A DNA stretch of 64,000 nucleotides, from positions 2,710 to 66,709 of the forward strand of contig JAURNR010000029.1 in the NCBI GenBank assembly GCA_030830065.1. The letters run 5' to 3'. The DNA comes from Bacteroidota bacterium. GTDB taxonomy: Bacteria; Bacteroidota; Bacteroidia; NS11-12g; UBA955. Positions 8,667 to 58,704 of this stretch are shown in pieces. The number at the start of each line of letters is the position of its first letter. The first letter of the stretch is position 1. The notes below the pieces were generated by a model. It made no database searches, had not been told where the DNA came from, and saw only the letters and a program-made list of their open reading frames with translations. A program made the translations under genes and the position numbers.

Positions 8667-8687
8667 AAGGTTAAATTAGTACAAAAA

Positions 8688-8717
8688 TAAAAAGCTCCGG
8701 TTAACCGGAGCTTTTTA
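8688..8717 (-). terminator. intrinsic terminator of the HU gene
   Basis: Perfect hairpin AAAAGCTCCGG-ttaa-CCGGAGCTTTT. On the minus strand it is followed by TTTTTATTTTT. It lies ~20 nt after the stop at 8736. Confidence 0.8.
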
Positions 8718-36366: not shown

Positions 36367-36720
36367 ATGCAGTGGACAACCTATTTATGGATGGCTTTAG
36401 GAGGTGGCCTAGGCACACTACTCAGAGGGGTAACAAATAAATGGCTCCCATTTGAAACGTCATCATTTGCTTGGGGCACCTTTTCAGTTAATATGATTGG
36501 TTGTTTTTTGATTGGTTTTTTATGGGGGAAAATTGAATCAGTAACATTGAAATATTTCTTAGTGACAGGAGTTTTAGGTGGACTCACTACATTCTCCGGA
36601 ATGGGATTAGAGTTATTCCGTTATTTCAACGATAAAGCCTTTGGTTTAATGGCCATTTATGGATTTTTATCCCTGGCGATTGGTATATTTATGGTATGGT
36701 TAGGGCAAAAGTTGGTTTAA
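36367..36720 (+). CDS. crcB: fluoride efflux transporter CrcB
   Basis: 117 aa with 4 TM helices and the GGLGTLLRG and GVLGGLTTFSG motifs. Confidence 0.85.
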   Translation: MQWTTYLWMALGGGLGTLLRGVTNKWLPFETSSFAWGTFSVNMIGCFLIGFLWGKIESVTLKYFLVTGVLGGLTTFSGMGLELFRYFNDKAFGLMAIYGFLSLAIGIFMVWLGQKLV

Positions 36721-37967
36721 TATTTATCTTTCTTTTGGGATGTTCTCAAATCCTATTTGGTAGTAAAATTCTAATACCGATGGATGAATCCCAAAAAAAT
36801 CATCTAAAAGCCTATGGCATTGCTTATTGGCTATTGGAGAAACAAAATACTGAAGTATTGTGGCTTTTGAATTATCGGGGAGGAAGCTTTTCAACGGAAT
36901 ACAGTTCATCAATTGAAACAGAATGTAAAACTAGAGGGGTTTCTTTTGAAGTTATTTCAGAATCGGAATCAAATTCCATTGAAACTACAATTTCTAACCC
37001 ATCGGTAAATATGAATATGGTGAAACTTTTAACTGCTCCAAAAATTGCAGTTTATTCACCGAAAACCAAACAACCATGGGACGATGCAGTAACACTAGTT
37101 TTAACATACGCAGAGATACCATATACAGTTATTTACGACGACGAAGTATTGAATAACAAACTGCCTGAATATGACTGGCTTCACTTACATCACGAAGACT
37201 TCACTGGTCAATACGGTAAATTTTGGGCTTCATACGCAAATGCTCCGTGGTATAAATCTCAAGTTGAAGAAACAGAGTCAATGGCAAGGAAGCACGGTTT
37301 CAGCAGTGCTCGGGAGTTAAAACGTGAAGTAGTAAGAAAGATTCGTGACTTTTGTCTGGGTGGTGGATTTTTATTTGCGATGTGCAGTGCCACAGATACC
37401 TATGACATTGCACTTGCCGCACAAGAAACAGATATCTGTGAGGTGATGTTTGATGGTGATCCTGCTGCTCCCAATGCCCAAAGCCAGCTCAACTATGAAT
37501 CTTGTTTTGCATTTAAAAACTTCACATTAGAGAATAACCCCTATGTTTATGAATATTCCGATATTGATGTAAATCCTGTATTACGGAATGTAAAAGAAGA
37601 AAATGATTTATTTACACTATTTGATTATTCCGCAAAGTGGGATTTGATACCAAGTATTTTATGTCAAAATCATACCCGAACAATTCGTGGATTCATGGGT
37701 CAAACAACGGCTTTTCACAAAGACTTAGTTAAAAGTGATGTTTTAGTGATGGGTGAAAATGCGTTACTCGAAGAAGCAAGGTATATCCATGGGTCTATGG
37801 GAAAAGGAACTTGGACTTTTTACGGAGGCCATGATCCTGAAGATTATCAGCATCATGTAGGAGAACCACCCACAGATTTAAACTTACATCCCAACAGCCC
37901 TGGCTACCGTCTAATTTTAAACAATATACTATTTCCGTCTGCTCAAAAATCAAAACAGAAAACTTGA
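36696..37967 (+). CDS. conserved secreted protein of unknown function (family I recall being annotated as asparagine synthetase B in Bacteroidota, probably wrongly)
   Basis: Signal peptide, then KILIPMDESQKNHLKAYGIAYWLLEKQNTEVLWLLNYRGGSF, PWDDAVTLVLTYAEIPY and YDWLHLHHEDFTGQYGKFW. It overlaps the crcB 3' end by 25 nt and the next gene by 4 nt. Confidence 0.45.
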   Translation: MVRAKVGLIFIFLLGCSQILFGSKILIPMDESQKNHLKAYGIAYWLLEKQNTEVLWLLNYRGGSFSTEYSSSIETECKTRGVSFEVISESESNSIETTISNPSVNMNMVKLLTAPKIAVYSPKTKQPWDDAVTLVLTYAEIPYTVIYDDEVLNNKLPEYDWLHLHHEDFTGQYGKFWASYANAPWYKSQVEETESMARKHGFSSARELKREVVRKIRDFCLGGGFLFAMCSATDTYDIALAAQETDICEVMFDGDPAAPNAQSQLNYESCFAFKNFTLENNPYVYEYSDIDVNPVLRNVKEENDLFTLFDYSAKWDLIPSILCQNHTRTIRGFMGQTTAFHKDLVKSDVLVMGENALLEEARYIHGSMGKGTWTFYGGHDPEDYQHHVGEPPTDLNLHPNSPGYRLILNNILFPSAQKSKQKT

Positions 37968-39811
37968 TTCGTAAATCCTCATTTATTACACATTTACCAT
38001 TTGGGATAATCCTAATTCTTGCAGCAATTCTCAGAATATGGGATATTCATGAATTCCCTATGGACTCTGATGAGTTGGGATCATTGTTTAGGGCATTAGA
38101 AAACCCTGATTTCAGTAATCATATTGCAAATGGAGTGATGATTGATGGTCACCCGGCTGGAGTTCAAACAATAATCTGGGTGTTAAGCTCATACTTCAAA
38201 TCTGAAGTTTCATTTAAAATCGTTTGGCTGTGCTTTAGTCTACTAAACTCAATATTGATATATACATTAACCACAAAGCTTACTAATAGACCTATTGCCT
38301 TATTAAGTTCTATTTTTTGGAGTTTTCTACACTTTCCAATCGATATGAGTATCTGGGTAAGGCCATACGAGATGGCCTTATTTTTTGAATTACTTTTCTT
38401 TTATTCACTTTTGGCGCTGCCAATTAAGAGAAAATACCATTTTATCGTTTTAGGAATTAGTTTGGGGTTAACTGGGTACATGCACTATTTCGCATTACTC
38501 ACTTCAATTATAGGATTATTAGTTTTCACTAAATTGGGTAAAAAACAAGAGATTTTCAATTCATTGAAAATTCTTGGTATTGCCGCATTATTACAAATTC
38601 CAGCACTTGGTATTTGGTCGCAACATTTTTTTAATGAAAAAGGGCTTAGTTGGCTTGGCAAACCCGAAATAGGATTCTTGTTTGATCATTTGTATTTCAT
38701 CTTTAACCAATCAAATTTAGTTAGTCTTAGTATCTTGATATTAGTAGGTATTTCTATCCATTTTCATTTGAGAAATAATTGGGAAAATATCCCCTGGAAG
38801 TTGCTTTTTATATTTCTCCTTGCCTTTGGTGTGGTTTGGGGATATTCATATTGGATAAAACCAATTATTCAACATCATGTTCTTTATTTCATGCTCCCCT
38901 TTTTGTTAATATTCTTATCGCATTGGATCATTAATGCCTCACCAAAATGGTATCGAATAACAATTTTATCTATTTTACCTTTAATATTAATTCAAAGTTT
39001 CCTGATAGAAAACAATCATTATTCAAACTGTAAACTAGACAAATATCACTCTCCTTTATTACAATTGTCCGTTATTAAATCTAACAATACAAAAACTCCA
39101 ATTCTATTTGATGGGCCTCAAGATATTATTGATTACAAACGCAAGCAATTTCCAGAACTAAATCTGATAAATGTAAATACTTTTGATTGGGACAATTGCT
39201 ACAATCAAATTGCTGAAGAATCTATGGATTCATTCTATGTGGTAACTAACTCTGGAAGTAATGACCGATTCCTACCCTATCTAACTGAAGTTTTCAACCC
39301 AATTCATATTCCACTTACTCAAAATGGATTTTATACTTTTCCAGGTAGTCAGATCAATTTATTTTCAAAGTCGAATCACAACAAAGAACCTTACAACTCG
39401 AAAAAAATAAGCATTAAGGCGGACAGCAATTATTTACTACCATTTTCTGAACTTGCAACTAAGTTTAATGGTATACAAAAAAATGACTTGATTTATATCA
39501 GATGCATAGATTCTCTGAAGGGCGAAAGGCATTTAGTATCTGCAATTTTTACGCCTATTTTCAACAAGGCTTTAAGACAAAATGACTATCGATTTACTTC
39601 AAACACAAAGCGCATTAATGACTCCATTGTAATCCATTCTGTTAAGTTGAGCGATATTCCTAATTGGAATAATGAGAGCACACTCAGGATTTCATATGAA
39701 AACAAGAATAGCAGTACTTCCAACTACGAATTTGATATGAGTATTACAATGCAAAAGGGGAATCCCTTTTTATATGGAATACCCCCGAATCAAATACTGT
39801 CGTTGAATTAA
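37964..39811 (+). CDS. GT-C fold membrane glycosyltransferase-like protein (GT39/ArnT-like) with C-terminal soluble domain
   Basis: About 11 hydrophobic helices. The first-loop acidic motif FPMDSDELGS is placed like the DE motif of ArnT/PMT enzymes. A ~250-aa non-membrane C-terminus follows. The TTG start overlaps the upstream stop. Confidence 0.55.
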   Translation: MIRKSSFITHLPFGIILILAAILRIWDIHEFPMDSDELGSLFRALENPDFSNHIANGVMIDGHPAGVQTIIWVLSSYFKSEVSFKIVWLCFSLLNSILIYTLTTKLTNRPIALLSSIFWSFLHFPIDMSIWVRPYEMALFFELLFFYSLLALPIKRKYHFIVLGISLGLTGYMHYFALLTSIIGLLVFTKLGKKQEIFNSLKILGIAALLQIPALGIWSQHFFNEKGLSWLGKPEIGFLFDHLYFIFNQSNLVSLSILILVGISIHFHLRNNWENIPWKLLFIFLLAFGVVWGYSYWIKPIIQHHVLYFMLPFLLIFLSHWIINASPKWYRITILSILPLILIQSFLIENNHYSNCKLDKYHSPLLQLSVIKSNNTKTPILFDGPQDIIDYKRKQFPELNLINVNTFDWDNCYNQIAEESMDSFYVVTNSGSNDRFLPYLTEVFNPIHIPLTQNGFYTFPGSQINLFSKSNHNKEPYNSKKISIKADSNYLLPFSELATKFNGIQKNDLIYIRCIDSLKGERHLVSAIFTPIFNKALRQNDYRFTSNTKRINDSIVIHSVKLSDIPNWNNESTLRISYENKNSSTSNYEFDMSITMQKGNPFLYGIPPNQILSLN

Positions 39812-39813
39812 TT

Positions 39814-40695
39814 TTATAGCCTAGGCTTAACAATGGTAAATACTCGTGACAAGTTAAATCCTAGTCGTATTCCTACATTGTTCCACTGCTCAGTTGTATT
39901 ACTAATAAATTGTGTTTCGTTTAAACCAATGCTGTTGGTTAGCTGAAACTGAAATACATGCCCCCCTGTTTCAACATCCATTCCCACAGAAAAACTATTG
40001 TACACATTGCCTTTGTTCGTTAACACAGGTATGTATTCAAGGTTAATACTGCTCCTTGGAGTGATTTTTTGACGCATTCCAATTCCTAATGCCCATTGCT
40101 GTTCATAATAAGTCCATGGTCCTGTGGTGATAGGATTTCTTGCATTTGTTAACCATGTTGGTGCAATTTCTACCGATAAATCTTCGGTAAATTTTCTACC
40201 AATAATTAATTGACCAAAGAATGATGATCTATCTAGTTGGGTTTTGGAATCGTGTGCAGAACCGAGTAAATATTGAGCTCCTCCAAGGGCAATTAATGTA
40301 ACTGGAATAGAGTTATCTGTATTTTGCTGAAGAATCCGATACTTTAAAAAGGCATCTAAATTTTTATTTCCTAGAACATTACTTCTTCCCATAGAAATCA
40401 TCAAATTATCAACTATTCCATATTCTAATCCAAATCTAACGGTGGCTTGATCAAGACCAAAGGCTTCTACCGGGCCATTATTGATTGAACCAAAACGATG
40501 CATCATTTTAAAATCAAGCACACCAAAATCTGTAATTTCTAAACTCTGAAGGTTCACTACTTTGGTTGTTTTGAAGGCATAATCAACCGGATATACTTGT
40601 TTTTCTTCATCTCCAAGTAAATCAAAATCATCATCTTGGGCATTGAGGAAAACTGTATTCAAAAAGAATACTGCAATTAATAATTTTCTTACCAT
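39814..40695 (-). CDS. DUF5777-type outer-membrane beta-barrel protein (paralog B)
   Basis: Signal peptide MVRKLLIAVFFLNTVFLNAQ. Motifs MMHRFGSI, GRSN and GGHVFQFQLTNS are shared with the upstream paralog. Confidence 0.6.
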   Translation of the reverse strand: MVRKLLIAVFFLNTVFLNAQDDDFDLLGDEEKQVYPVDYAFKTTKVVNLQSLEITDFGVLDFKMMHRFGSINNGPVEAFGLDQATVRFGLEYGIVDNLMISMGRSNVLGNKNLDAFLKYRILQQNTDNSIPVTLIALGGAQYLLGSAHDSKTQLDRSSFFGQLIIGRKFTEDLSVEIAPTWLTNARNPITTGPWTYYEQQWALGIGMRQKITPRSSINLEYIPVLTNKGNVYNSFSVGMDVETGGHVFQFQLTNSIGLNETQFISNTTEQWNNVGIRLGFNLSRVFTIVKPRL

Positions 40696-41615
40696 CTTCT
40701 TATTAAATTAAAGCCCAAACAAAATTGATCTATACTTGCGAAAGTGGGATCAGTTACTAAAAAGTACGGTTCATTCATTGATCTAGAGTTCGTAAGATTA
40801 ATTTGAAAAACGTGGCGTGGGGTAAAATATTCAAACCCAATTCCATAGGAGGGTGTTGATTTTTCGTAAGGCTTGTTAATTCCTTGAATAATGGTGCTCG
40901 CCTCCGCCGTCAAAGCTAATTTTGGAATTAACTGTAATCTAGAATACGCGGAAATTACAGGCATGGTATTCGACCTATCACTAGCATCAACCAAATTAAA
41001 GTGAACCACTCCTGGAGATACTCCGAGAACTAAATTTTCACCCGCTTGATAAGATGCGAGTAGTTGATTGGTAAACATCATTCGATGCGTAAAGAAATAT
41101 GGATCCAGTCCCCAATCTGCATTTCTCCTGCCGTCCACGGCTAAATCAGACAACAAACTCAATTGAAACTTCTTATCAAAACCACCTATTAAATTCCATT
41201 TGGCATAGGAGTTATAGGTTTTTTGAAGTGATGATCTCCCTGCTCCAATTGTTAATCTATTACCTACGGCAAAATCAAAACCAATACGCATACTGTTGAG
41301 GTTATCAATACCCCAAAGGTTTTCTGCTCCAGAGGAGATGGTTCCAAAACGATGTTGTATGGACACTTCAAAAGTCCCTTTTGGTAGTGTTGCAGTTGTT
41401 TGTCCGGTAATTAGCCTTAAACTTTTAAAGTTGGCACTTGTTTCAGGCAGTGGTTTATCGAAGTCAGCCACTTTAACTGGAGCTTGCTCCACAATTATAT
41501 TTACAGAATCTGAATTATTCTTCTGGGTATATGTATCATTATTTCCTCCAAACAATGAAACGATGGGCGCCAGGATATAGGTTGCAAACCATTTAGATAT
41601 CGATATTGTGTTCAT
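40689..41615 (-). CDS. DUF5777-type outer-membrane beta-barrel protein (paralog A)
   Basis: Motifs IQHRFGTI, GAGRSS and PRHVFQINLTNS are present. It has an ATGA overlap with the upstream cytochrome gene and a 7-nt overlap with paralog B. Confidence 0.6.
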   Translation of the reverse strand: MNTISISKWFATYILAPIVSLFGGNNDTYTQKNNSDSVNIIVEQAPVKVADFDKPLPETSANFKSLRLITGQTTATLPKGTFEVSIQHRFGTISSGAENLWGIDNLNSMRIGFDFAVGNRLTIGAGRSSLQKTYNSYAKWNLIGGFDKKFQLSLLSDLAVDGRRNADWGLDPYFFTHRMMFTNQLLASYQAGENLVLGVSPGVVHFNLVDASDRSNTMPVISAYSRLQLIPKLALTAEASTIIQGINKPYEKSTPSYGIGFEYFTPRHVFQINLTNSRSMNEPYFLVTDPTFASIDQFCLGFNLIRRW

Positions 41616-41989
41616 GGTTTCATTCCTTGATTAATCCAAGATTGTATTAAATTAATTTTACAATTAGAGAGTTTTGAATCATTTTTTGGCATGTTACTCG
41701 CAGTTCCATCCCAAAGTATAGAACCCATAAATTTGCCTCGATTTTGGTTTACGTAATCAACCGTTGTTTGAAAATCATATATCTCAATACCCGCTGAAGG
41801 ATTATTTCCTGAATGACAACGAGCACATCTCCTTGAAATAATTTGTTCGATATTTATCCCATATGTCACTGAAGAAGTATCGCATTCATTATCGCCATAC
41901 AAATCTTCAACATTATCGTTATAACAAGCTGAAATAACTGTAACAAAAACAATTAAAACAACGGCTATTTTAGTTTTCAGGACATCCAT
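41612..41989 (-). CDS. small c-type cytochrome-like lipoprotein (one PSCyt1-like module, CxxCH)
   Basis: From Met12: MDVLKTKIAVVLIVFVTVISAC (lipobox). It carries CARCH (CxxCH), an NMP Met candidate ligand and the C-terminal LIQSWINQG. It overlaps the upstream gene by 20 nt. Confidence 0.65.
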   Translation of the reverse strand: MDVLKTKIAVVLIVFVTVISACYNDNVEDLYGDNECDTSSVTYGINIEQIISRRCARCHSGNNPSAGIEIYDFQTTVDYVNQNRGKFMGSILWDGTASNMPKNDSKLSNCKINLIQSWINQGMKP

Positions 41990-42617
41990 CTTGTATCCAT
42001 TTTTGAAGTTGTTTAATCTCACAATCGGTCATTATTTGAGAATTACCTGGAGGCATTAATGGGTAACCATTACCATATAACACACCCATTAACTTTCCTG
42101 AAGTTCCGATAGATTTCATTGCAGAATGTAAACTCAAATCTAAATTACCGGAAGCCCCTGGGTAGGTATGACATCCTATACAATACTTTGTGACTAAGGG
42201 AGTAACTGCTTGAGAGTAGGTATACACATTTGAATCGCAATCGCTGCTGCAGTTCATGCCATTTTCTGCCCCGCCTGCAATCCAGGCTTTGATAATTGCT
42301 TTTTGATCGGCTGACATAGGATTTTTCGGTGGCATTTCATTTTCTAAAATTACCTCATATAATTCAGAACCGTCAGGGTTACCTGCTTTCACTCCTTTTC
42401 GGGTGATTGTTGCGTAATTAGTAAGGACATATCCATCTTCTGCTGTAGCCGCATCATGACAACCGCTTGTTGCACAATTGGAAACAATCAGCGGTAAAAC
42501 ATCACGTTCAAAACAAATAGAATCGGAATCTACAGTAGGGATTACTTCATGTTTACAAGACATGAAAAATAAAGGAGCAGCAAATGCAATAAAGGCAAGG
42601 CTGTTAAAAGAATTCAT
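41970..42617 (-). CDS. c-type cytochrome-like lipoprotein with two PSCyt1-like modules (CX4CH and CxxCH)
   Basis: Lipobox PLFFMSC. Module 1: FERDVLPLIVSNCATSGCHD...EMPPKN...IKAWIAGGAEN. Module 2: VTPLVTKYCIGCHTYPG...LMPPGN...LQKWIQDGC. Confidence 0.65.
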   Translation of the reverse strand: MNSFNSLAFIAFAAPLFFMSCKHEVIPTVDSDSICFERDVLPLIVSNCATSGCHDAATAEDGYVLTNYATITRKGVKAGNPDGSELYEVILENEMPPKNPMSADQKAIIKAWIAGGAENGMNCSSDCDSNVYTYSQAVTPLVTKYCIGCHTYPGASGNLDLSLHSAMKSIGTSGKLMGVLYGNGYPLMPPGNSQIMTDCEIKQLQKWIQDGCPEN

Positions 42618-42632
42618 AGTTTTGATTCGTTT

Positions 42633-43187
42633 TTACTTAGATTTTTTGGGTTCTAGTTTTGCTTCGAAATGAATGGTGATTCTATTAGATATCTGGTTAA
42701 TATTATTTTTTGGAATCGCGATTTTATAGTCGCTCAATAGTACATCAAAGTTTCCAGACATGACCACTTCATTTTTATTTTTTTGTATTGTTCCGGTAGC
42801 AGAAATTTCTTTTTCAACACCATGCATTTTCATTACACCCGATACTTTAACTTCCTGTTCTCCATCTTTGAGTTTGAAGTTTTCTGGTTCAATTACTGAT
42901 CCTTTAAAGTCGGCATTAGGATATTTGCTGGACTCCATATAATTCTCTTGAAAGTGGGTTTGCATTAATTTTTTCTCAAATTCAAAAGAGTTAACTGGGA
43001 CACGAAACTGAACTTTCCCTTTGTTGGTAAAAGCAATTGTTGGTTGATGATTAATAGCCTCGAATTCTTCAAAATCTGTTTTGCTCACAAATCTAATGTG
43101 TGCATCAGTACTTTTGTAAACTTGAGATGATGCTGCTCCTACAAAGAATATAGAAGCCATAAGGAGGATGATTGAATATTTTTTCAT
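42633..43187 (-). CDS. YceI family periplasmic (polyisoprenoid-binding-like) protein
   Basis: From Met9 (MKKYSIILLMASIFFVGAASSQ). SKTDFEEFEAINHQ..., MHGVEKEISATGT and the length fit the YceI lipocalin-like domain. Confidence 0.7.
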   Translation of the reverse strand: MKKYSIILLMASIFFVGAASSQVYKSTDAHIRFVSKTDFEEFEAINHQPTIAFTNKGKVQFRVPVNSFEFEKKLMQTHFQENYMESSKYPNADFKGSVIEPENFKLKDGEQEVKVSGVMKMHGVEKEISATGTIQKNKNEVVMSGNFDVLLSDYKIAIPKNNINQISNRITIHFEAKLEPKKSK

Positions 43188-43192
43188 TTGAA

Positions 43193-43642
43193 TTATTTTT
43201 TGATTGAACAACGACTAAAACTTACAATGATTTCAGATAATAAGTCATCGGGATCGTCTGGAAGTGATATGCCGTTAAATTTACATTGGCATGTAACTGA
43301 ATCTCTTTCTTTAATATTTTGCAAATCGATATTTTGTGAAGGATCAAAAGCGGCTCTAACGATTACCGTTTCATCAGTATTTACATCGAGTTTGATCTCA
43401 CTTTGGGAATCATCAATCTTAATCGAAGATACATCTCCGCTAAACTGAATTACTTTATCTACATATTTTGAGTTGAACAGGCTGTCATTTGTTTCAATTC
43501 CTTCATTTACTAAATCTTCAATTGATAATGTAAAATCCGCATTCCCATCTGCAATTTTAGCGGTTGGCTGAAACCAAAAGAATAGACCAGTTATTCCCGC
43601 TATCGCTACAAGAATTAAAACAATTAATCCAACTTTTTTCAT
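43193..43642 (-). CDS. membrane-anchored OB-fold protein (tRNA_anti-like family)
   Basis: N-terminal TM helix LIVLILVAIAGITGLFFWF. SKYVDKVIQFSGDVSSIKIDDSQSEIKL...DSVTCQCKFNG...IVSFSRCSI fits the tRNA_anti-like OB-fold pattern. Confidence 0.6.
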   Translation of the reverse strand: MKKVGLIVLILVAIAGITGLFFWFQPTAKIADGNADFTLSIEDLVNEGIETNDSLFNSKYVDKVIQFSGDVSSIKIDDSQSEIKLDVNTDETVIVRAAFDPSQNIDLQNIKERDSVTCQCKFNGISLPDDPDDLLSEIIVSFSRCSIKK

Positions 43643-43665: not shown

Positions 43666-45339
43666 ATGTTCACTTATACTAACAAAAATAAGATGATTTA
43701 CCCCCAAAAAGTTTGCATTTTTTTTACTTTTTTATTTGCAATAAATATCAATTGGGGACAGCAAGACATTGAAATTCATACTGCTAAAAAGATTTATTGC
43801 GTAAATGATTCTTTCAATAATGTGGAATGTTTTGCTGTAAAAAACGGGATTATTCAATTTACAGGAAGCATTGATTCAGCAAAAAATAAATTTCCAAATG
43901 CCAAAATCATTAAGCATCGTGGATATATATTTCCAGGTTTTAATGATGCACATTGTCACTTTCTAGCTTATTGTAGAGGCATAGAAGAATTGCAATTATT
44001 TGGCACAACGTCTAAACACGATATACGTAAAAAACTAAAAAAGTTTGCCTGTAAACATAGAAAACGTAAATGGATTATTGGCAGAGGTTGGGATCAAAAC
44101 ATTTGGCCAGAGAACAATTTCCCCACTCATAGCGACCTCAAGGGTGCCACTGAAATTCCAACTTGCTTGAGCCGTGTTGATGGACATGCTATTTGGCTAA
44201 ACAAGGCAGCTTTAGAATCTCTTAATTTAAATTACGACACTACAATAGTTGGAGGTGAAATATTAAAGCTAGCAGATGGTTCACCGAGTGGAGTATTCAT
44301 TGATAAAGCGGCAGATTGGATTCAAGAAATCATTCCAAATATGGATGAAGACCTATTAATAAAAGCGTTAAAATGTGGAACTGAAGATATTATAAAGGCA
44401 GGTATAACCTCAATTTCAGAAGCTGGACTAAGTTTTAATCAGATTAATTTCTTACATCGCATGCAAGAATTAGGGATACTGCCAATTAGAATCAATGCAA
44501 TGCTGAGTTCAAGCCAAGAAAATTTAAATCATATTAGTAAGGGTGATTTACCAAAAACCGAAAAGTTAAGGGTTCGATCAATGAAATTTTATCTTGATGG
44601 CGCACTAGGTTCCCGGGGAGCATTACTTAAACATGATTATTGCGACCGTTTACATCATAAAGGGTTACAGCTAATGGATGCTAATGAATTTAGATATTAC
44701 GCTAATTTTTTAATGCAGAAAAACTATCAAGTATGTGTACATGCAATTGGAGACAGCGCAAATAAAATTGTGATTGATGCATTCACAAATACTTTAGTCC
44801 CTGATTTTGATGCCCGTTGGAGAATTGAACACGCACAGATAGTAGATCTTGAAGATGTAAAAAAGTTAAAAAACTATAGTGTGATTCCTTCAATTCAGCC
44901 AACTCATGCAACATCAGATGCGCCATGGGCGTTTGAACGATTATGCAACTCAAAAGATGGTCATAACCCTCAAGAGGGAGCATATGCATACAAGACCTGG
45001 TTAGATTCCATGGGATATGTTGCCTTGGGCACTGATTTCCCTGTTGAAGGAATAAGTCCAATTGCTACATTCTATTCCGCAGTATTTAGAAAAGATTTGA
45101 ATGGATCTCTTGAGCAAGCATTTCTTCCCAATCAATCATTAAGTAGACAGCAAACTTTACTAGGTATGACTCTGTGGGCCGCAAGGGCAGAATTCACTGA
45201 TAATTACAAGGGAAGTATCGAAGCCGGTAAATACGCAGATTTTGTTGTTTTGAATAAGGATATCATCGAAATCGAAGAGTCTAAATTTAAACGAGTAAAA
45301 GTAAAGCATACCTTTATTGGCGGAGAAAAAGTACACTAG
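43666..45339 (+). CDS. amidohydrolase family protein (YtcJ-like metal-dependent hydrolase)
   Basis: GFNDAHCHF (HxH metal site), VHAIGD, RIEHAQ and GTDFPVE are present. The true start may be Met10 at 43693 (MIYPQKVCIFFTFLFAIN, signal-like). Confidence 0.75.
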   Translation: MFTYTNKNKMIYPQKVCIFFTFLFAININWGQQDIEIHTAKKIYCVNDSFNNVECFAVKNGIIQFTGSIDSAKNKFPNAKIIKHRGYIFPGFNDAHCHFLAYCRGIEELQLFGTTSKHDIRKKLKKFACKHRKRKWIIGRGWDQNIWPENNFPTHSDLKGATEIPTCLSRVDGHAIWLNKAALESLNLNYDTTIVGGEILKLADGSPSGVFIDKAADWIQEIIPNMDEDLLIKALKCGTEDIIKAGITSISEAGLSFNQINFLHRMQELGILPIRINAMLSSSQENLNHISKGDLPKTEKLRVRSMKFYLDGALGSRGALLKHDYCDRLHHKGLQLMDANEFRYYANFLMQKNYQVCVHAIGDSANKIVIDAFTNTLVPDFDARWRIEHAQIVDLEDVKKLKNYSVIPSIQPTHATSDAPWAFERLCNSKDGHNPQEGAYAYKTWLDSMGYVALGTDFPVEGISPIATFYSAVFRKDLNGSLEQAFLPNQSLSRQQTLLGMTLWAARAEFTDNYKGSIEAGKYADFVVLNKDIIEIEESKFKRVKVKHTFIGGEKVH

Positions 45340-45386: not shown

Positions 45387-46490
45387 ATGATTTCTACCCG
45401 TTTCAAGACTATTGCTATTAACCTTTGCTTTATAAGTATAAGTACTCAAATTGTGGTTTCTTGCAGCGAGACTGTTTCATACTATCAGCCTAGTAAAAAA
45501 ACCTTAATTCATTCTGTATATGCGAGTGCCCATATAGAATCAGCGGATCAATATGAACATAGAACAGAAGTTAGCGGACGATTAACTCATTATTTTGTTA
45601 AGGAAGGTGTTGAAGTTAATGCGGGAGATAAAATTGCAGAATTAGAACAACTAATTCCAAATATTAATATTTCAAATGCAAATGAGGCATACAAGTTGTC
45701 TGTCGCCAGTAAATCTCAACTTTCAGAGTTATCGATTCAATTGAGTCAACTTGAAGATCAAATGAAGCTGGATTCAATCAATCTAAGTCGTCAAAAAAGA
45801 TTATTCCAGAAAAATGTGGGCAGTAAATCTCAATTAGAAAATTTTACAATTAAAGCAAAATCAAGTAAGAGTTTATTCGAGGCTACTCGTAAGAAATACG
45901 AATTACTTGCAGAGCAAATAAAGGCTAGTATAATGCAATCAAAAAACAATTATGAACTTGCTCAAGCAAATTCGAATAAATTCTTTATTTATGCTTTCAG
46001 ATCTGGAAAAGTTTATTCATTGCCAAATGCCGTTGGAAGCATTGTAAATCGACAGCAACCTTTTGCAATTATTGGTAATAATGAAGATTTTACGATTGTA
46101 ATGGAGGTAGATGAAGCAGATATCTCAAAAATATCGGTAGGACAAGAAGTTTGGGTAAAATTAGAAGCTTATGAAAAAAGCTTTAAAGCGGAGTTAACCT
46201 CAATTAGGCCGCTTTTAGATGCTAGAAATCAAACCTTTAGAGCTGAGGCAAAGTTCATATCAGAAATCCCAACATTATACCCTGGACTAAATGCTGAGTG
46301 TAATATTATTATAGATCGCAAAGAAAATATACTTGTACTTCCTAACAGGTTAATTGAAGGAGATAGTGTGGTTTATACCCAAGATGGTGTCAAATCCGTC
46401 AAAATAGGCTTAAAAAACCAAATTGAAAGTGAAATTATTAGTGGTTTAGTGGAGTCGGATAAGATTAAAGAACCCGAAAATGGGAAATAA
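45387..46490 (+). CDS. HlyD/MacA-type periplasmic adaptor (membrane fusion protein)
   Basis: Barrel-sandwich/lipoyl hairpin (GRLTHYFVKEGVEVNAGDKIAEL), a long coiled-coil middle and a beta-barrel C-terminus. It is first in an operon with an FtsX permease and an ATPase. Confidence 0.75.
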   Translation: MISTRFKTIAINLCFISISTQIVVSCSETVSYYQPSKKTLIHSVYASAHIESADQYEHRTEVSGRLTHYFVKEGVEVNAGDKIAELEQLIPNINISNANEAYKLSVASKSQLSELSIQLSQLEDQMKLDSINLSRQKRLFQKNVGSKSQLENFTIKAKSSKSLFEATRKKYELLAEQIKASIMQSKNNYELAQANSNKFFIYAFRSGKVYSLPNAVGSIVNRQQPFAIIGNNEDFTIVMEVDEADISKISVGQEVWVKLEAYEKSFKAELTSIRPLLDARNQTFRAEAKFISEIPTLYPGLNAECNIIIDRKENILVLPNRLIEGDSVVYTQDGVKSVKIGLKNQIESEIISGLVESDKIKEPENGK

Positions 46491-47745
46491 AGTCCTGTTT
46501 AAAATAGCCAGAACCCATGTTTATGCAAAGAGAAAGCAATCTATAATTGCTTCACTTGGAGTAACTTTTGGTATTGGAACCTTCATTATTCTGATGAGTT
46601 TCATGACAGGGTTAAATGGATTACTTGATGGGTTAATTTTAAATAGAACTCCACATGTAAGAGTATATAACGAGATTCAACCTAGTGCAAAGCAAGCTAT
46701 ATCAAATAGTGAAAATTATCCTTCAGATAAATTTTTCCATAAAATTGAATCAATAAAGCCCCAAGCCGCTAAATCATCCATAAGGAATTCATTGGGTATT
46801 ATTGAAGGATATCAAAAAGATAAAAGAGTAAGAGGTATTACCCCACAAGTTTCTGCACGTGTTTTTTACAAAAGTGGCTCGGTATTATTGAATGGCAATT
46901 TATTAGGTATTAACCCTGAGGAAGAAGCACGGCTTTTCAATTTTGATGATTATGTACTGCATGGTAGTCCAACTGATTTAAAAAACAATAGTAATGCTAT
47001 AATTTTAGGTGCTGGTGTAGCAAAAAAACTATCTCTTAAAATTGGAGACTATATCCCAATGGTAAATCCCAAAGGGAAAGAATTTAAACTTAAAATTGTT
47101 GGTCTTTTCCAAAGTGGTTTAGCTGAGGTTGATAATATTCAGAGTTATGCAAATATTGCTGCCGCTCAATCTGCAGCTGGAGAAGGAACAGGATATTTTA
47201 CTGATATTCACTTTAAACTTCACAAAATTGAAGATGCGGCTCCCTTGGCCAATGAATTAGAAGAGTTATTTGGAGTTCACGCAATTGATATACATAGAGC
47301 AAATGCACAATTCGATACAGGAACTTCCATTAGAAACTTAATTACATACGCCGTTTCAATTACTTTATTGATAGTTGCCGGATTTGGAATTTATAACATC
47401 CTAAATATGCTTATTTATGAAAAAATGAATGACATCGCTATATTGAAAGCAACCGGGTTTTCGGGATCAGATGTAAAACGAATATTCATTTACCAAGCAT
47501 TGCTGATTGGCTTTATGGGAGGAAGTATAGGATTGTTAGTTGGATATGGAATGTCTCACGTGATTGATAATGCTCCTTTTGAAACGGAAGCTTTACCAAC
47601 TATTAAAACATTCCCAGTAAATTTTGATCCAATGTTTTACATCGGAGGAGGTTTATTTGCCTTAATTACAACATTCTTTGCAGGTTATTTTCCTGCTCGA
47701 AAAGCGAGTAAAATTGATCCTGTTGAAATTTTAAGAGGACAATAA
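46480..47745 (+). CDS. ABC transporter permease, MacB/LolC-E (FtsX) family
   Basis: N-terminal TM helix, a ~230-aa periplasmic MacB-like domain and three C-terminal TM helices. It ends PARKASKIDPVEILRGQ, typical of the FtsX family. Confidence 0.85.
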   Translation: MGNKVLFKIARTHVYAKRKQSIIASLGVTFGIGTFIILMSFMTGLNGLLDGLILNRTPHVRVYNEIQPSAKQAISNSENYPSDKFFHKIESIKPQAAKSSIRNSLGIIEGYQKDKRVRGITPQVSARVFYKSGSVLLNGNLLGINPEEEARLFNFDDYVLHGSPTDLKNNSNAIILGAGVAKKLSLKIGDYIPMVNPKGKEFKLKIVGLFQSGLAEVDNIQSYANIAAAQSAAGEGTGYFTDIHFKLHKIEDAAPLANELEELFGVHAIDIHRANAQFDTGTSIRNLITYAVSITLLIVAGFGIYNILNMLIYEKMNDIAILKATGFSGSDVKRIFIYQALLIGFMGGSIGLLVGYGMSHVIDNAPFETEALPTIKTFPVNFDPMFYIGGGLFALITTFFAGYFPARKASKIDPVEILRGQ

Positions 47746-47747
47746 TT

Positions 47748-48431
47748 ATGAGGAAGGAAGAATTATTAAAAGTTAGGGGAGTAAACAAATATTTTCATGA
47801 TCCCACCACTATTCAGGTATTGAAAAATATCAATTTTGACCTCAACAAAGGTGAATATGTGTCCATAATGGGGAAATCAGGATGCGGAAAGAGCACTTTA
47901 CTTTATATTCTAAGTACAATGGATACGGATTATGAAGGAGAGATTGAATTAAAAGGTATAAACCTTACAAAGCAATCGCACAATGAACTTGCTAGGATAC
48001 GTAATGAGTATATTGGATTTATTTTTCAGTTTCACTATTTGTTACCAGAATTTAGTATCCTGGAAAATGTAATGATGCCTGCCTTAAAACTAGATAAATA
48101 TTCACGACAAGAAATAGAGCATAGAGCGATTGAAAAGTTGAGATTATTAGATATACATAACCTTGCAAAAAAGAAAGCCACTCAAATATCTGGTGGGCAA
48201 AAACAAAGAGTTGCCATTGCAAGAGCACTAATTAATGAACCTTTAATAATTATGGGTGATGAACCCACGGGTAATTTAGATTCAAAGAATGCCGATACAG
48301 TATTTCACTTGTTTAAAGAGATGATTTCAGAATTTAACACTACCCTATTGATTGTTACTCACGATGAGGATTTTGCAAATAGGACCGATCGGATTATTAC
48401 AATGTCTGATGGGGAAATAATTAATCTTTGA
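47748..48431 (+). CDS. ABC transporter ATP-binding protein (LolD/MacB type)
   Basis: Walker A GKSGCGKST, signature SGGQKQRVAIARAL, Walker B IIMGDEPTGNLD, H-loop VTHD. Confidence 0.9.
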   Translation: MRKEELLKVRGVNKYFHDPTTIQVLKNINFDLNKGEYVSIMGKSGCGKSTLLYILSTMDTDYEGEIELKGINLTKQSHNELARIRNEYIGFIFQFHYLLPEFSILENVMMPALKLDKYSRQEIEHRAIEKLRLLDIHNLAKKKATQISGGQKQRVAIARALINEPLIIMGDEPTGNLDSKNADTVFHLFKEMISEFNTTLLIVTHDEDFANRTDRIITMSDGEIINL

Positions 48432-48480: not shown

Positions 48481-48551
48481 GGTCGGATGGCCGAGCGGCT
48501 AGGCAGAGGTCTGCAAAACCTTTTACACCGGTTCGAATCCGGTTCCGACCT
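48481..48551 (+). tRNA. tRNA-Cys (anticodon GCA)
   Basis: Hand-folded cloverleaf. Acceptor GGTCGGA/TCCGACC, D-arm GCC...GGC, anticodon stem GAGGT/ACCTT with loop CTGCAAA (anticodon GCA). The variable loop is 4 nt, the T-arm is ACCGG-TTCGAAT-CCGGT, and the discriminator is T (U73, as expected for tRNA-Cys). CCA is not encoded. Confidence 0.9.
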
Positions 48552-48554
48552 CCG

Positions 48555-55491: not shown

Positions 55492-56460
55492 TTACTCTTT
55501 AATTAGTTTGGTAATCACTCTGTTACCATCAATCATAGCTGAAACAAAATATAGTCCGCTTGGTAAATGCTCGGTTGAAAATACATTTCTACTAATAGAT
55601 ACAACTGGGAAACTCTGCCCTTGCACATTAAATAGCGATAATTCTTTTACCGGTAATTCACTCTTAAAACTAAAATAGTTTTTTGCAGGATTAGGATAAA
55701 CAGAAATACTCGGTGGAGTAATGTGTTCTTTAGAATTGGTATTTTCTAACACAACCCCATCTAATGCAAAAAATGCCGGTGTATTCATTCCCCATTGTCC
55801 GTTATCTGAACTGTAAAGTTGGAAATTTAGACTATCGAAATACTCTGTAAACTCCACAAATTTCCATGTTTTTAGAATCCCCATAGAATTAGGCGTTCTA
55901 AAATCTGCCAAGTAGACCAAACTAGAATCTACTAAAACGTTTTCTGCGAAAGAATAAATTTTGAGTACAAAAGTATCCTTGTCGTTATAACTAAATTGCT
56001 TTCCTATTTGATCCCCAAATAACATACTATTAACGGCATAGGTGGTGTTGGCAATATAAAATCCTTTAATTCTCTGGGTGGGCATTTTAGGACTTTGATT
56101 CAACAAATGCGCACCATTAAAACCAACGGCATAAACTGCAGTACCTTCGGCACCACTACCTGGTCTAGCACAATACAAATGTTTAGAAAAATCGCTAGTT
56201 TCTTCAGTAGTATCGATTCTAGTAGAGAATGCCCAAGGACCGGTAGAATATCCTCCCCAACTTGTATCCCAACCCATTATCATCTCCAAATAGTAATCAT
56301 CTTGTGAAAATGAAACTGTATCTATTCTATTGGATCCGTCCCAATAATTATCGGTTCCAATATTGGTTTCAAGAATGTCAAAATGAAATTTCACTTCGTT
56401 TTGTGCAACTGAAAAGGACATGCAGAGTCCGATGATGATTAAGCTAAGTAATTTTTTCAT
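55492..56460 (-). CDS. DUF4465-like protein with T9SS C-terminal sorting domain
   Basis: Signal peptide. YWDGS...GWDTSWGGYSTGPWAFSTRIDT...GAEGTAVYAV resembles DUF4465. The C-terminal ISVYPNPAKNYFSFKSELPVKELSLFNVQGQ...GLYFVSAMIDGNRVITKLIKE looks like a T9SS CTD. Confidence 0.55.
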   Translation of the reverse strand: MKKLLSLIIIGLCMSFSVAQNEVKFHFDILETNIGTDNYWDGSNRIDTVSFSQDDYYLEMIMGWDTSWGGYSTGPWAFSTRIDTTEETSDFSKHLYCARPGSGAEGTAVYAVGFNGAHLLNQSPKMPTQRIKGFYIANTTYAVNSMLFGDQIGKQFSYNDKDTFVLKIYSFAENVLVDSSLVYLADFRTPNSMGILKTWKFVEFTEYFDSLNFQLYSSDNGQWGMNTPAFFALDGVVLENTNSKEHITPPSISVYPNPAKNYFSFKSELPVKELSLFNVQGQSFPVVSISRNVFSTEHLPSGLYFVSAMIDGNRVITKLIKE

Positions 56461-58316
56461 TATTTATTAAATTTTATTGTGCAGTTAATAGTAATACTAC
56501 GAGTAGGCATAGGCCTTCCCGGCATATTTTGATATTGTTCATTTAGTAGGTTAATAACCTCTATACCTAAAAGCATGCTGTAAATAGCAGTTGGCTTTAA
56601 TTTGATATGGTAATATCCACCAAGATCCACAGTAGAATAACTGTTTAACCAATCACTGTTATCGGTTGTAGTATATCTGGACCCGCGGTAATGATAAATT
56701 GCATATGTTTTTAAGTTTCCCTTATTCCAAGAAACTTTAAGGTCATGAGTCCAATCGGGAATAAAAATTGGTCTTGTTTTATTTAATGAATGAGAGGGAA
56801 TTGCAGGATCCTCAAGAACTACCCATGCATTTACCCAGTCGCTTTTGTAGTTGAAATTCAAGGAAGAATTTACAAATAGCATTTTCCATTTTAAGCCTAG
56901 TTGCAAACCTGAATAAGTACTAAAATTTAAATTTATTGGTCGCCATAGACCATTTGCTTGCGGTTGCCAAGAAATAGGATTCTCTAATTCGCGATAATAC
57001 CCGGTTATTGAAGGCTGGATTTCATGAATCCCAGATTTCTTCAAATAATCCAATCCTACTTCTGAACTCCATCCTATTTCATTACGCAAATTGGGGATTT
57101 CTGAGGATGGATTAACCCAAAATAAATCATTCAGAGTAGGTCTTCTAAAGCTTTTATTTATGTTAAAACGAGCATTAATTTCTTTGGTAAATGGGGATTC
57201 GACATTAAATGCTCCTGACCATACTTTTCCATTAAACTCATACCTCGAATCAAATGCAATTTTGGTACTCTTTAAATTAGTCATCCAAGCCATAAATACT
57301 GCCGGAAGGTCTCTGACAGCATCTTTGAAATAATGTACTGATTTCCCCTTTTGACGCTGATAATCAAAACCCACTAATGCTTGCCCCCAAGTATTATCCC
57401 ATGAAATTTCGGTCTGTGTAAAATACATATTAGCAAAACTGCTATCAGGGATTAATTTAAAAATTGGTGCATCGGCATAGGCAATTCTATCATAGGTATA
57501 ACCTAGTTTCTGGTTGATTTGAAGGTTTTCAAAATTCAAATTGTAATCTAGAACCGAACGCACATAGAAGTCAGATTGCTCAGCCAAAGTAGAATTCCCT
57601 ATCTCCCGAAAAACTTCACCTACATCTGTAGACCACTTTATATGACTAAATTTATTAAGCTGATGAGCAAGGGTGTTTTTTATAGTGTTTTGATGAAATT
57701 TTGTTTTATCCCAAAGAAGAGTTTCTTCACCTTTTTGGTAATTGAAGCGATTTGCGTTGTAGATTGAGCTTAACGCTACATTCCAATACCATTTTTCATT
57801 AGAGAATTTTACCGCGGCAGAAGTATGATAATTGGACATAGAATTAGCCCCAGTATTGAGGGATGCCGAGTTGTGCTTTGAATAAAACGGTTGGTTATTA
57901 AGAATTACGGTTCCGCCTACACTACCTGATCCGTACATAGATGAGTTTCCACCTTCTATGATATACATTTCATCATTTCCGTAGGCAGAAATATTATTAA
58001 AATCCATCATCCCCAACATAGGATGATTTATGGGAAGGCCATTCCATATTACTTGAGTTTGAGAAGCATCAGCCCCTCTTTTAGTGATCGTAGCGCTTCC
58101 AGCAGGACCATATTGCTTAAAAAACGTACCGGTCTCTCCCATCGCATCTGTTAATGTTAGTGCTCGGTTATTGTTGGCGATTCCAACTTTTAATCTTCCA
58201 ATGCTCGCAAAATCTGCTCTCGTTTTATTAATAAAAATAGTATCTACAGGAGTAAGTTGAAGACTATCTCCCGTGCTCATTGCACACAATGCCGTGTATA
58301 GAATTGAACCGAACAT
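56460..58316 (-). CDS. btuB: TonB-dependent outer-membrane receptor, cobalamin (BtuB-like) by riboswitch context
   Basis: N-terminal plug (TLTDAMGETGTFFKQYGPAGSATITKRGADASQTQVIWNGLPIN), a beta-barrel body and a C-terminal ...INCTIKFNK. It is immediately downstream of a cobalamin riboswitch. Confidence 0.75.
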   Translation of the reverse strand: MFGSILYTALCAMSTGDSLQLTPVDTIFINKTRADFASIGRLKVGIANNNRALTLTDAMGETGTFFKQYGPAGSATITKRGADASQTQVIWNGLPINHPMLGMMDFNNISAYGNDEMYIIEGGNSSMYGSGSVGGTVILNNQPFYSKHNSASLNTGANSMSNYHTSAAVKFSNEKWYWNVALSSIYNANRFNYQKGEETLLWDKTKFHQNTIKNTLAHQLNKFSHIKWSTDVGEVFREIGNSTLAEQSDFYVRSVLDYNLNFENLQINQKLGYTYDRIAYADAPIFKLIPDSSFANMYFTQTEISWDNTWGQALVGFDYQRQKGKSVHYFKDAVRDLPAVFMAWMTNLKSTKIAFDSRYEFNGKVWSGAFNVESPFTKEINARFNINKSFRRPTLNDLFWVNPSSEIPNLRNEIGWSSEVGLDYLKKSGIHEIQPSITGYYRELENPISWQPQANGLWRPINLNFSTYSGLQLGLKWKMLFVNSSLNFNYKSDWVNAWVVLEDPAIPSHSLNKTRPIFIPDWTHDLKVSWNKGNLKTYAIYHYRGSRYTTTDNSDWLNSYSTVDLGGYYHIKLKPTAIYSMLLGIEVINLLNEQYQNMPGRPMPTRSITINCTIKFNK

Positions 58317-58329
58317 AACGCGTATGCGG

Positions 58330-58578
58330 TTTTTGGGTATAAAGGATTGCTAGGACGAAATAATCGAACGCAGCGAGCTTTTATTCCCGAAAGCCGACTT
58401 ACTTTTTGAGCGTTGGCAGGTCTTCTGACTTCCTCGGTTGAAGCGCCTTCCCGATTTCTCAGTGGCTCAGATGCTTCTCCCAATTGTGCGAGGTTACAGC
58501 TGCGGGTACAGTCTCGGATTTACACCGAAGTTCCCTTTTCGTTTTCTATCCCAGCCGTGGATAGAAAAACCAAAACTC
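58330..58578 (-). promoter_or_regulatory. cobalamin (B12) riboswitch in the 5' leader of the btuB-like operon
   Basis: The minus strand reads ...AAAAGGGAACTTCGGTGTAAATCCGAGACTGTACCCGCAGCTGTAACC..., the conserved GGGAA / GGTG.AAATCC / CCCGC.GCTGTAA core. AGTCAGAAGACCTGCC (B12 box) lies at plus 58415-58430. A TAATTTTG -7-type box lies at 58584-58591 just upstream. Two track ORFs (58277..58483 and 58413..58682) are spurious overlaps. Confidence 0.88.
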
Positions 58579-58704
58579 AGTTGCAAAATTATATTGTTTG
58601 TTTAGTTCTTTATTGTCATTTTTTCCACACGAGTTTGTCGAAGTATTCGAATTTCAATCGATACCTATGGTGTAAACCTTAATAAACGGCAATACATTTG
58701 TTTT

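Follow-up and report, generated by a model that had tools for sequence, protein, structure and literature searches.

In Burkholderia, mutants of bcnA (encoding a YceI-family protein) and lcoA (encoding a cytochrome b561) show raised lipid peroxidation, a YceI homologue of Neisseria binds ubiquinone-8, and lcoA-bcnA gene fusions occur in alpha-proteobacteria (PMC9113575). LcoA has been proposed to re-reduce the lipocalin-bound quinone, the pair detoxifying lipid peroxyl radicals in the envelope (PMC9113575). In foxEYZ, FoxE is a dihaem, His/Met-ligated, Fe(II)-extracting cytochrome (PMC10654088). Here we describe a cluster of six genes at positions 39814-43642, minus strand, of a 64,000-nucleotide stretch of DNA (the window) from a Bacteroidota bacterium (assembly GCA_030830065.1, contig JAURNR010000029.1, positions 2,710 to 66,709), which couples c-type cytochromes, joined or replaced by a Rieske protein in some relatives, to an outer-membrane barrel and a YceI protein. 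This concrete, widely conserved and so far unstudied gene set is one jointly inherited envelope module of Bacteroidota, with a small outer-membrane barrel and one-electron redox lipoproteins as constant features, usually joined by a YceI lipocalin and an anchored OB-fold protein. Bacteroidota are among the most abundant heterotrophs of lakes, soils, oceans and wastewater plants, and the redox chemistry of their outer membrane is, to our knowledge, nearly unexplored. We tentatively regard the cluster as a possible analogue of BcnA-LcoA, i.e. an outer-membrane-directed single-electron module that may quench lipid-derived radicals, with YceI supplying a lipid or quinone cofactor.

The locus had been singled out in an earlier sequence-only reading, which pointed to the adjacency of yceI and the cytochrome b561 gene yceJ in E. 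coli (confirmed here) and did not include the proposed role of the YceI/cytochrome b561 pair in lipid peroxyl-radical detoxification (PMC9113575). The six head-to-tail genes that it described are borne out by the table of open reading frames (ORFs), and with ATG starts its junctions were reproduced, namely gaps of 5 nt and 15 nt and overlaps of 20 nt, 4 nt (ATGA) and 7 nt:

43193-43642, minus strand: OB gene, 149 aa, N-terminal membrane anchor and tRNA_anti-like OB-fold domain
42633-43187 from ATG ('MKKYS...'), minus strand: YceI gene, 184 aa, signal peptide, lipocalin-like periplasmic protein
41970-42617, minus strand: Cyt2, 215-aa lipoprotein with two c-type haem modules
41612-41989 from ATG ('MDVLK'), minus strand: Cyt1, 125-aa lipoprotein with one c-type haem module
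40689-41615, minus strand: barrel A, 308 aa, divergent DUF5777 outer-membrane barrel paralogue with C-terminus ...RRW
39814-40695, minus strand: barrel B, 293 aa, canonical DUF5777 outer-membrane barrel with signal peptide

Conservation of the cluster across Bacteroidota

A scan of species-representative genomes returned at least 600 stretches, 80 of which were kept as loci; relatives are encoded in 598 of the 600 pattern matches listed, and the cluster is present in at least about 600 species-level genomes. All kept loci but one (79/80) are titled as Bacteroidota lineages, the exception being L018, a metagenome-assembled genome titled Methylophilus with the gene order of the Chitinophagaceae loci L021 and L071. 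The lineages with the cluster comprise Chitinophagales, Saprospirales, Cytophagales, Flavobacteriales and Sphingobacteriales. To annotate the loci, the six proteins of the window were searched iteratively against ORFs from all six frames, and neighbours were counted in the 55 loci with enough flank, a partner being scored when it lies next to the barrel on the same strand. By this count, a cytochrome-module gene accompanies the barrel in 53/55 loci, an OB gene in 45/55, a YceI gene in 45/55, and all three together in 40/55. At least 19 different gene orders, permuted between lineages, were found among these 55 loci, the commonest being Cyt2-Cyt1-OB-YceI-barrel (21 loci).

The partnership of YceI and cytochromes claimed from the single locus does recur (YceI in 45 of the 55 loci), and the suggested neighbourhood check yielded co-conservation of cytochrome, OB and YceI with the barrel (53, 45 and 45 of 55); the pair of DUF5777 genes proved clade-specific. 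Likewise, the six-gene layout is real in the window, but its two-barrel, OB-first order is restricted to one clade, and the widespread unit consists of cytochrome(s)-OB-YceI and a single barrel. The order OB-YceI-Cyt2-Cyt1-barrelA-barrelB, with its second barrel, occurs only in the window's clade (L001-L005, L081 and L083), as does barrel A itself, and flanking amidohydrolase and PMT_2-like genes are common to its members too.

That the six genes are mere neighbours without a shared function is hardly credible. The flanking genes are indeed conserved only within the window's clade, and an orphan Cyt2 homologue exists in Limnovirga soli, both of which would suit chance proximity. Yet four families have stayed together through many rearrangements in at least five Bacteroidota orders, which argues for a shared function, and in the window the genes overlap or abut.

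Cytochrome modules and their replacement by a Rieske protein

The two lipoproteins had been said to carry three copies of one cytochrome module, and BLASTP established three homologous haem modules by matching module 2 of Cyt2 with Cyt1 (E 5e-11) and module 1 of Cyt2 with module 2 (E 1e-4, collinear across the haem site, MPP and WI..G). Their haem sites are:

42456-42476, minus strand: haem site 1, C-ATSG-CH (CX4CH), Cyt2 module 1
42168-42182, minus strand: haem site 2, CIGCH, Cyt2 module 2
41813-41827, minus strand: haem site 3, CARCH, Cyt1

In Pfam, Cyt2 matched PSCyt1 (PF07635, E 7.5e-9, 36.5 bits, cut-off 22) and Cytochrome_CBB3 (PF13442, E 4e-8, 33.9 bits, cut-off 27), while Cyt1 alone stayed under every Pfam cut-off (13.7 bits) and is placed as a cytochrome solely via its homology to module 2 and the conserved CxxCH and MP motifs. 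The PSCyt1 pattern attributed to all copies thus holds by Pfam for module 1 but for that module only, and its site there is CX4CH. NCBIfam gave sub-threshold matches to LIC11213_lipo and cytochrome c55x for the cytochromes, and none for the barrels and the OB protein.

The module 1 site is nearly always CxxSGCH among cluster-linked two-module homologues, CxGCH of module 2 is invariant in the alignment of cluster-linked homologues, and the site of Cyt1 homologues is CxxCH, occasionally CX4CH. The string CxSSGCHD is shared with a haem site of cytochrome c3 (1i77). The lipoboxes previously noted on the cytochromes (FFMSC and VISAC) are seen in the translations, and the lipobox cysteine of Cyt2 (C21) is invariant in an alignment of 44 homologues, as are C48/C53/H54, M95, C146/C149/H150 and M188-P189. 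This alignment is also without variation in the WI..GA helix, in additional cysteines and in the Met-Pro that follows each of the two sites; across 49 homologues of Cyt1, conservation extends to CxxCH, MP, W-I..G and a Cys pair. With C..CH invariant in all three modules and followed by an invariant M-P (44-49 homologues), covalent haem attachment is likely, and His/Met ligation can reasonably be inferred.

The best solved relative of the Cyt2 family profile is FoxE (5mab, E 3.4e-6, about 30 bits, homology at the domain level), with a match spanning F..lP, the haem site, PG.P..S, MPP and WI..GA. FoxE is a two-module periplasmic c-type cytochrome, as Cyt2 would be, the haems of FoxE are His/Met-ligated and the Cyt2 modules keep the matching Met-Pro, and the conserved Cys pairs of Cyt2 may act like the stabilising disulfide of FoxE. 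They differ in that FoxE is a soluble protein whose haem sites are both CXXCH and whose partners are FoxY, a pyrroloquinoline quinone (PQQ) protein, and FoxZ, whereas Cyt2 is a lipoprotein with CX4CH at site 1 and has the barrel, YceI and the OB protein as partners. Neither FoxY nor FoxZ (an inner-membrane transporter) was present among the cluster genes and conserved neighbours. The AlphaFold2 (AF2) model of Cyt2 is all-helical with two domains (predicted local distance difference test score, pLDDT, 84). Foldseek with the whole two-domain model found nothing significant (best E 3.4), probably because the model is haem-free and the orientation of its domains is free.

For the surroundings of the cluster, flanking ORFs of the loci were clustered and representatives scanned. 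A Rieske [2Fe-2S] lipoprotein with a twin-arginine translocation (TAT) signal lies directly upstream of barrel-YceI in four Cytophagales loci of the Emticicia/Runella type:

L010, 9487-9903: Rieske lipoprotein
L048, 9499-9927: Rieske lipoprotein
L055, 2393-2848: Rieske lipoprotein
L086 (Runella rosea CP030850), 6021-6467: Rieske lipoprotein

In L010 and Runella rosea, where the Cyt2 homologue of the latter is DR864_11165, it stands alongside the cytochrome and is preceded by the gene of an extracytoplasmic function (ECF) sigma factor and, downstream of that gene, by a putative anti-sigma gene without a Pfam match; L048 and L055 have no cytochrome gene at all, which leaves it as their sole redox protein. 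This replacement of the cytochromes speaks more strongly than any other observation on the loci for electron transfer as the cluster's conserved activity. The locus had been proposed to be a redox or quinone/lipid-handling module, and the redox part of that proposal gains independent support from the four Rieske loci and from additional putative surface proteins with CxxCH in some loci.

Signs of surface exposure

Acidic runs past the lipidated cysteine act as a lipoprotein export signal (LES) in Bacteroidota, with C-x-K-(D/E)2 as the optimal signal and KKEVEEE as the functional signal of MucG (PMC5080379). The mature N-terminus of Cyt1 in the window is C-Y-N-D-N-V-E-D and its consensus C-Y-Y-D-x-E-E, with a mean of 2.55 acidic residues in positions +1 to +6. 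In comparison with the published signals, it resembles functional KKEVEEE of MucG and not the optimal C-x-K-(D/E)2 (PMC5080379). Mature Cyt2 begins with C-K-H-E-I/P, has a mean of 1.07 acidic residues in +1 to +6 and falls outside the LES pattern, in which a polar or basic residue precedes a stretch of acidic ones within +2 to +6. Given this likeness to the export signal, Cyt1 is possibly surface-exposed.

Choice-of-anchor V (NF041895)/Reeler-like proteins with a C-terminal sorting domain of the type IX secretion system (T9SS) and an N-terminal CxxCH or CxxSGCH are encoded in six loci. They lie in or beside the cluster in five of these (inside it in three) and within about 4 kb in the sixth, and are candidate cell-surface haem proteins judging from their motifs:

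L017, 5381-6298: choice-of-anchor V protein
L032, 7066-7908: choice-of-anchor V protein
L067, 8539-9393: choice-of-anchor V protein
L034, 6533-7696: choice-of-anchor V protein
L071, 6515-7705: choice-of-anchor V protein
L080, 3228-4085: choice-of-anchor V protein

The same haem modules, of the Cyt1 type, also form the C-terminus, singly or in pairs, of Chitinophagaceae lipoproteins built from many SprB-type repeats (FN3 domain in some):

L034, 1591-3663: SprB/FN3 lipoprotein with terminal haem modules
L063, 7725-9005: SprB/FN3 lipoprotein with terminal haem modules
L029, 1374-2939: SprB/FN3 lipoprotein with terminal haem modules
L059, 8544-9593: SprB/FN3 lipoprotein with terminal haem modules

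DUF5777 barrels and the direction of electron flow

The assignment of both barrels to DUF5777 is firm (PF19089, E 7.5e-54 and 183 bits for barrel A, E 3.3e-74 and 249.7 bits for barrel B, cut-off 23.1, both covering positions 1-247/247), and so is their claimed paralogy, with 23% identity (E 4e-15) and the common motifs HRFG, GRS, HVFQ..TNS and GFNL.R. Our literature searches found no paper on DUF5777 or PF19089. With barrel A as query, the family comprises 1146 representative clusters at 50% identity (E<=1e-3). The best 150 of these 1146 representatives are mostly about 270-320 aa long and contain no cytochrome-barrel or YceI-barrel fusions. P0243 (615 aa), with two complete DUF5777 barrels in tandem, is the sole long representative found to carry a second known domain; the other long ones are barrels with low-complexity or unknown extensions. 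The tandem fusion suggests that DUF5777 barrels can pair and is compatible with barrels A and B of the window acting together.

The AF2 model of barrel B (62-sequence alignment, pLDDT 77) has 12 strands, and its best Foldseek matches are the 12-stranded NanC/KdgM porins (E 1.5e-6 to 1e-5, template modelling (TM) score on the target 0.65-0.74), followed by FapF, COG4313 and OmpG; the COG4313 channels show the top sequence identity among these fold matches (14-15%). The barrel shares with KdgM/NanC a lumen lined with charged residues, but there is no sequence-level relationship, Pfam yielding DUF5777 alone, and DUF5777 has its own invariant motifs (HRFG, GRS, ETGGHVFQ..TNS and GFNL.R) and a conserved N-terminal extension. 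The barrel profile had no match among sequences in the PDB. With strand faces assigned by hydropathy, the lumen side presents conserved Asp, Lys, Arg, Glu, Asn, Ser and Gln, and the invariant H66 and H246 are located on the non-lumen face, each where a strand ends. The N-terminal segment AFKTTKVINLQS is conserved, modelled with low confidence, and may be a plug or a partner-binding peptide. The idea of the barrel as a hydrophobic channel is weakened by its conserved charged lumen.

An outer-membrane beta-barrel encoded beside c-type cytochromes, possibly including a surface lipoprotein cytochrome, is reminiscent of MtrCAB, PioAB/MtoAB and Cyc2. In MtrAB/PioAB, however, a large porin (>20 strands) encloses a multihaem cytochrome, while the present model has 12 strands and the cytochromes one or two haem sites each. 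The window cytochromes are mono- or dihaem and not deca-haem bis-His proteins as in Mtr-type systems, and cytochrome and barrel form one polypeptide in Cyc2 but are separate genes here. MtrB has about 26 strands and Cyc2 about 16-18.

These comparisons bear on electron uptake, a close rival to our reading, though a somewhat unlikely one. An external one-electron donor, for which Fe(II) is the most plausible candidate and Mn(II) or reduced organics are possible ones, would pass through the barrel as its specific channel or dock on it. Its oxidation by the FoxE-like cytochromes would take place at or beneath the outer membrane, and the electrons would travel inward to the terminal oxidases. The cluster would then be a minimal porin-cytochrome/Cyc2-like or FoxE-like system, with electron flow opposite to that of the reading we favour. 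The most constant pair of the cluster is barrel and cytochrome (53/55), the nearest solved homologue of the haem modules (E 3.4e-6) is Fe(II)-extracting FoxE (PMC10654088), the invariant Met-Pro is the pattern of His/Met haems in FoxE and other Fe(II)-oxidising cytochromes, and the conserved charged lumen suits ions. Moreover, the export-like N-terminus of Cyt1, the SprB/FN3 fusions and the T9SS haem proteins point outward, and a VIT1 iron transporter gene lies near one locus. On the other hand, PSCyt1-type modules are widespread, so homology to FoxE is not diagnostic of function, and FoxY and FoxZ are absent. A barrel of 12 strands has no room for a cytochrome inside, as MtrB has, fusions of the two are missing from the best 150 of the 1146 representatives, and YceI, the OB protein and the YceI-linked sensor are left unexplained. 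We also know of no Fe(II) oxidisers among the carrier lineages.

A further, unlikely reading is a minimal trans-outer-membrane electron conduit made of the DUF5777 barrel, surface-exposed Cyt1 outside, the dihaem lipoprotein in the periplasm and a quinone-type lipid mediator carried by YceI. If true, this would be a new, very small design for passing electrons across the outer membrane. Hundreds of aerobic Bacteroidota species would have it, it would have no relationship to MtrCAB or Cyc2, and it would let these common heterotrophs of freshwater, soil and sludge trade electrons with their surroundings or with the lipids of their own outer membrane.

YceI and OB-fold proteins

The YceI assignment is upheld by Pfam (PF04264, E 4.5e-16, 60 bits, cut-off 23.7), and the motif F.F..aL..eHFnENY.ES is conserved in 71 cluster-linked homologues. 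Its best solved relative is the polyisoprenoid-binding protein 5w2d of C. jejuni (E 6e-4). We found no literature linking YceI with PSCyt1 or LIC11213, and none on YceI and a cytochrome in Flavobacterium. In another context, a study of iron limitation in Riemerella lists a YceI gene as differentially expressed (value 1.16, direction unconfirmed).

YceI-family proteins bind polyisoprenoids, according to PDB names, and ubiquinone (PMC9113575), which would also fit the trafficking of a hydrophobic, isoprenoid-like cargo. In that case the barrel would import or export the cargo, YceI would carry it through the periplasm to or from an inner-membrane site anchored by the OB protein, and the cytochromes would oxidise or reduce it (a quinone or pigment, for example). 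The hydrophobic-compound channels of COG4313, with the highest identity among the fold matches (14-15%), and the coupling of a second YceI to a sensor kinase agree with this explanation. We nevertheless consider it improbable: the lumen residues are Arg, Lys, Asp, Glu, Asn and Ser, unlike the greasy paths of FadL, OmpW and COG4313 types, the conserved set includes no ATPase or permease, and YceI is absent from about 18% of the loci that keep barrel and cytochrome.

The tRNA_anti-like OB fold claimed for the first gene was likewise recovered (PF12869, E 1.5e-9, 38 bits, cut-off 23.5). A profile of 29 cluster-linked homologues matches 3f1z in the PDB, a 'putative nucleic acid-binding lipoprotein' (E 5e-5), while the single OB sequence matched nothing in the PDB. 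The entry 3f1z is the one structural-genomics structure of PF12869, a family that also takes in the C-terminal domain of TcdC (PMC3575817), and neither 3f1z nor the TcdC domain has a defined role. A Gly and a Cys pair are conserved in the OB family.

The topology of the OB protein, an N-terminal anchor followed by an OB fold, is CcmE-like, and together with the unusual CX4CH site it could hint at an accessory system for haem or cytochrome maturation, in which barrel and YceI would handle haem and a CcmE-like OB protein would help to mature the CX4CH cytochrome. Special haem sites often need dedicated lyases in System II organisms, and lipocalin-like barrels can bind haem. This is nonetheless very improbable, as the cluster is retained in loci whose modules are all CXXCH and in those whose one redox protein is Rieske, there is no linked lyase gene, and the OB family conserves its Gly and Cys pair and no His/Tyr. 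A CcmE-like haem chaperone was accordingly rejected as the identity of the OB protein, for want of a CcmE Pfam match and of a conserved CcmE-like His/Tyr.

Regulatory neighbours

A histidine kinase of the Reg_prop/Y_Y_Y/LytS type (about 950 aa) is encoded in 17 loci and a LytTR regulator in 13. Directly before the kinase lies a second YceI gene in at least 11 of the kinase loci, and the set of second YceI, kinase and LytTR may stand on either side of the cluster:

L018, 10943-15145: second YceI, kinase and LytTR
L024, 2915-7393: second YceI, kinase and LytTR
L049, 3294-7517: second YceI, kinase and LytTR
L051, L054, L067, L071 and L073: second YceI, kinase and LytTR

The second YceI could help to sense a hydrophobic signal, as a co-sensor. 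About eight loci contain an ECF sigma factor, which in several, Runella rosea among them, is directly followed by a putative anti-sigma gene, and five loci contain a CCP/MauG peroxidase.

A putative role in keeping outer-membrane lipids reduced

The reading that we tentatively favour, a radical-quenching counterpart of BcnA-LcoA, draws on the co-inheritance of the genes, the conserved haem sites, the Rieske substitution and the precedent of YceI with cytochrome b561. Stress regulation or lipid sensing is suggested by the second YceI with its kinase, the ECF sigma factors and CCP/MauG, and a direction towards the outer membrane or surface by the acidic N-terminus of Cyt1, the SprB/FN3 fusions and the T9SS CxxCH proteins. 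If His/Met-ligated, the haems would probably be of high potential. Single electrons would pass from the periplasmic respiratory cytochrome pool to the cytochromes and on, at the barrel, to the outer membrane or the cell surface, an isoprenoid or quinone-type lipid held by YceI would be the radical-quenching or electron-accepting cofactor, and the OB protein would tether or load YceI at the inner membrane. The job of the system might be to keep outer-membrane lipids or pigments reduced and to quench lipid-derived radicals, with c-type cytochromes (joined or replaced by Rieske in some lineages) in place of b561 and a dedicated barrel added.

As in BcnA-LcoA, a secreted YceI is genetically coupled to an envelope haem protein of electron transfer over many genomes, and the cluster is linked in many loci to stress-type regulators. 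The partner of BcnA is, however, an inner-membrane bis-His b561, whereas here it is a lipoprotein c-type cytochrome, or a Rieske protein in some loci, and the window cluster adds the DUF5777 outer-membrane barrel and the OB-fold anchor protein. No b561-like gene was found in the window cluster or in the conserved neighbour families of the 80 loci, and no PsrA-type reductase was linked to the cluster. The cluster belongs to none of the Mtr/Pio, Cyc2, foxEYZ and YceI-b561 systems, since defining parts of these were looked for and are absent.

Several observations weigh against this antioxidant role. BcnA-LcoA works without an outer-membrane barrel, and the charged or polar lumen of the barrel, being not greasy, fits ions better than lipids. 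The barrel is more constantly paired with a cytochrome (53/55) than with YceI (45/55), and Cyt2 is missing from the closest relative of the window locus, L001 (barrel B 89% identical), and from L083; the absence in L001 is clean, only 119 nt separating YceI from Cyt1 (8585-8704). The similarity of the window YceI to BcnA (5ixh) is weak (E 0.29). His/Met haems are too oxidising for the full reduction of menaquinone, and only radicals or semiquinones could be re-reduced. The surface exposure of Cyt1 is a matter of motif resemblance, and the components are known here from genes and models.

If the antioxidant reading is true, the defence against lipid peroxidation by YceI and cytochromes would extend to a second phylum and to the outer membrane, and DUF5777 and the tRNA_anti-like OB proteins of Bacteroidota would receive their first function. 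Under either this reading or the conduit, the long-open role of YceI becomes testable in a new genetic context, for which Runella rosea, Emticicia, Adhaeribacter terreus and Flavihumibacter solisilvae are cultured carriers.

Gene starts, promoter region and flanking genes

The longest ORFs of YceI (42633-43211, TTG start) and Cyt1 (41612-42022, GTG start) extend beyond the ATG starts used here. In the translations, the OB protein has an uncleaved hydrophobic N-terminal anchor, and YceI and barrel B have signal peptides. One promoter candidate precedes the first gene:

43683-43690, minus strand: candidate Bacteroidota -7 promoter box TATTTTTG, supported by its position

The box TATTTTTG is present as reported, 40 nt upstream of the first ATG, but its motif class TANNTTTG is not enriched in the AT-rich window (83 observed vs 91 expected by chance). 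At this chance frequency a promoter is possible there but the box alone lends it no weight, and the box was rejected as evidence for an operon. A sigma-70 scan, a method unsuited to Bacteroidota, stayed below the shuffle expectation, and no terminator-like sites were found on the minus strand inside the cluster.

Positions 43666-43692 (+) belong to the longest ORF of the divergent amidohydrolase, which thereby begins, at 43666, within the putative promoter region of the cluster; a second in-frame ATG at 43693 ('MIYPQK...'), with a signal-like hydrophobic stretch after it, makes the more plausible start. At the other end, the convergent gene described earlier was found again, its plus-strand ORF ending at 39811, 2 nt off the stop of barrel B. 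The region 36696-39811 (+) encodes a 423-aa secreted protein without a Pfam match, which overlaps by 4 nt with a 615-aa multi-pass PMT_2-like membrane protein. This pair, convergent on the cluster, is kept beside it in L081 and L083, which may reflect clade synteny only. Further away, a single tRNA-Cys (GCA) is located at 48481-48553 (+), just past genes of an ATP-binding cassette (ABC) transporter (45387-48431), and a cobalamin riboswitch (Rfam RF00174, 97.6 bits) at 58398-58589 (-) lies directly upstream of a 618-aa ORF (56460-58316, -), the downstream genes presumably forming a B12 uptake operon.

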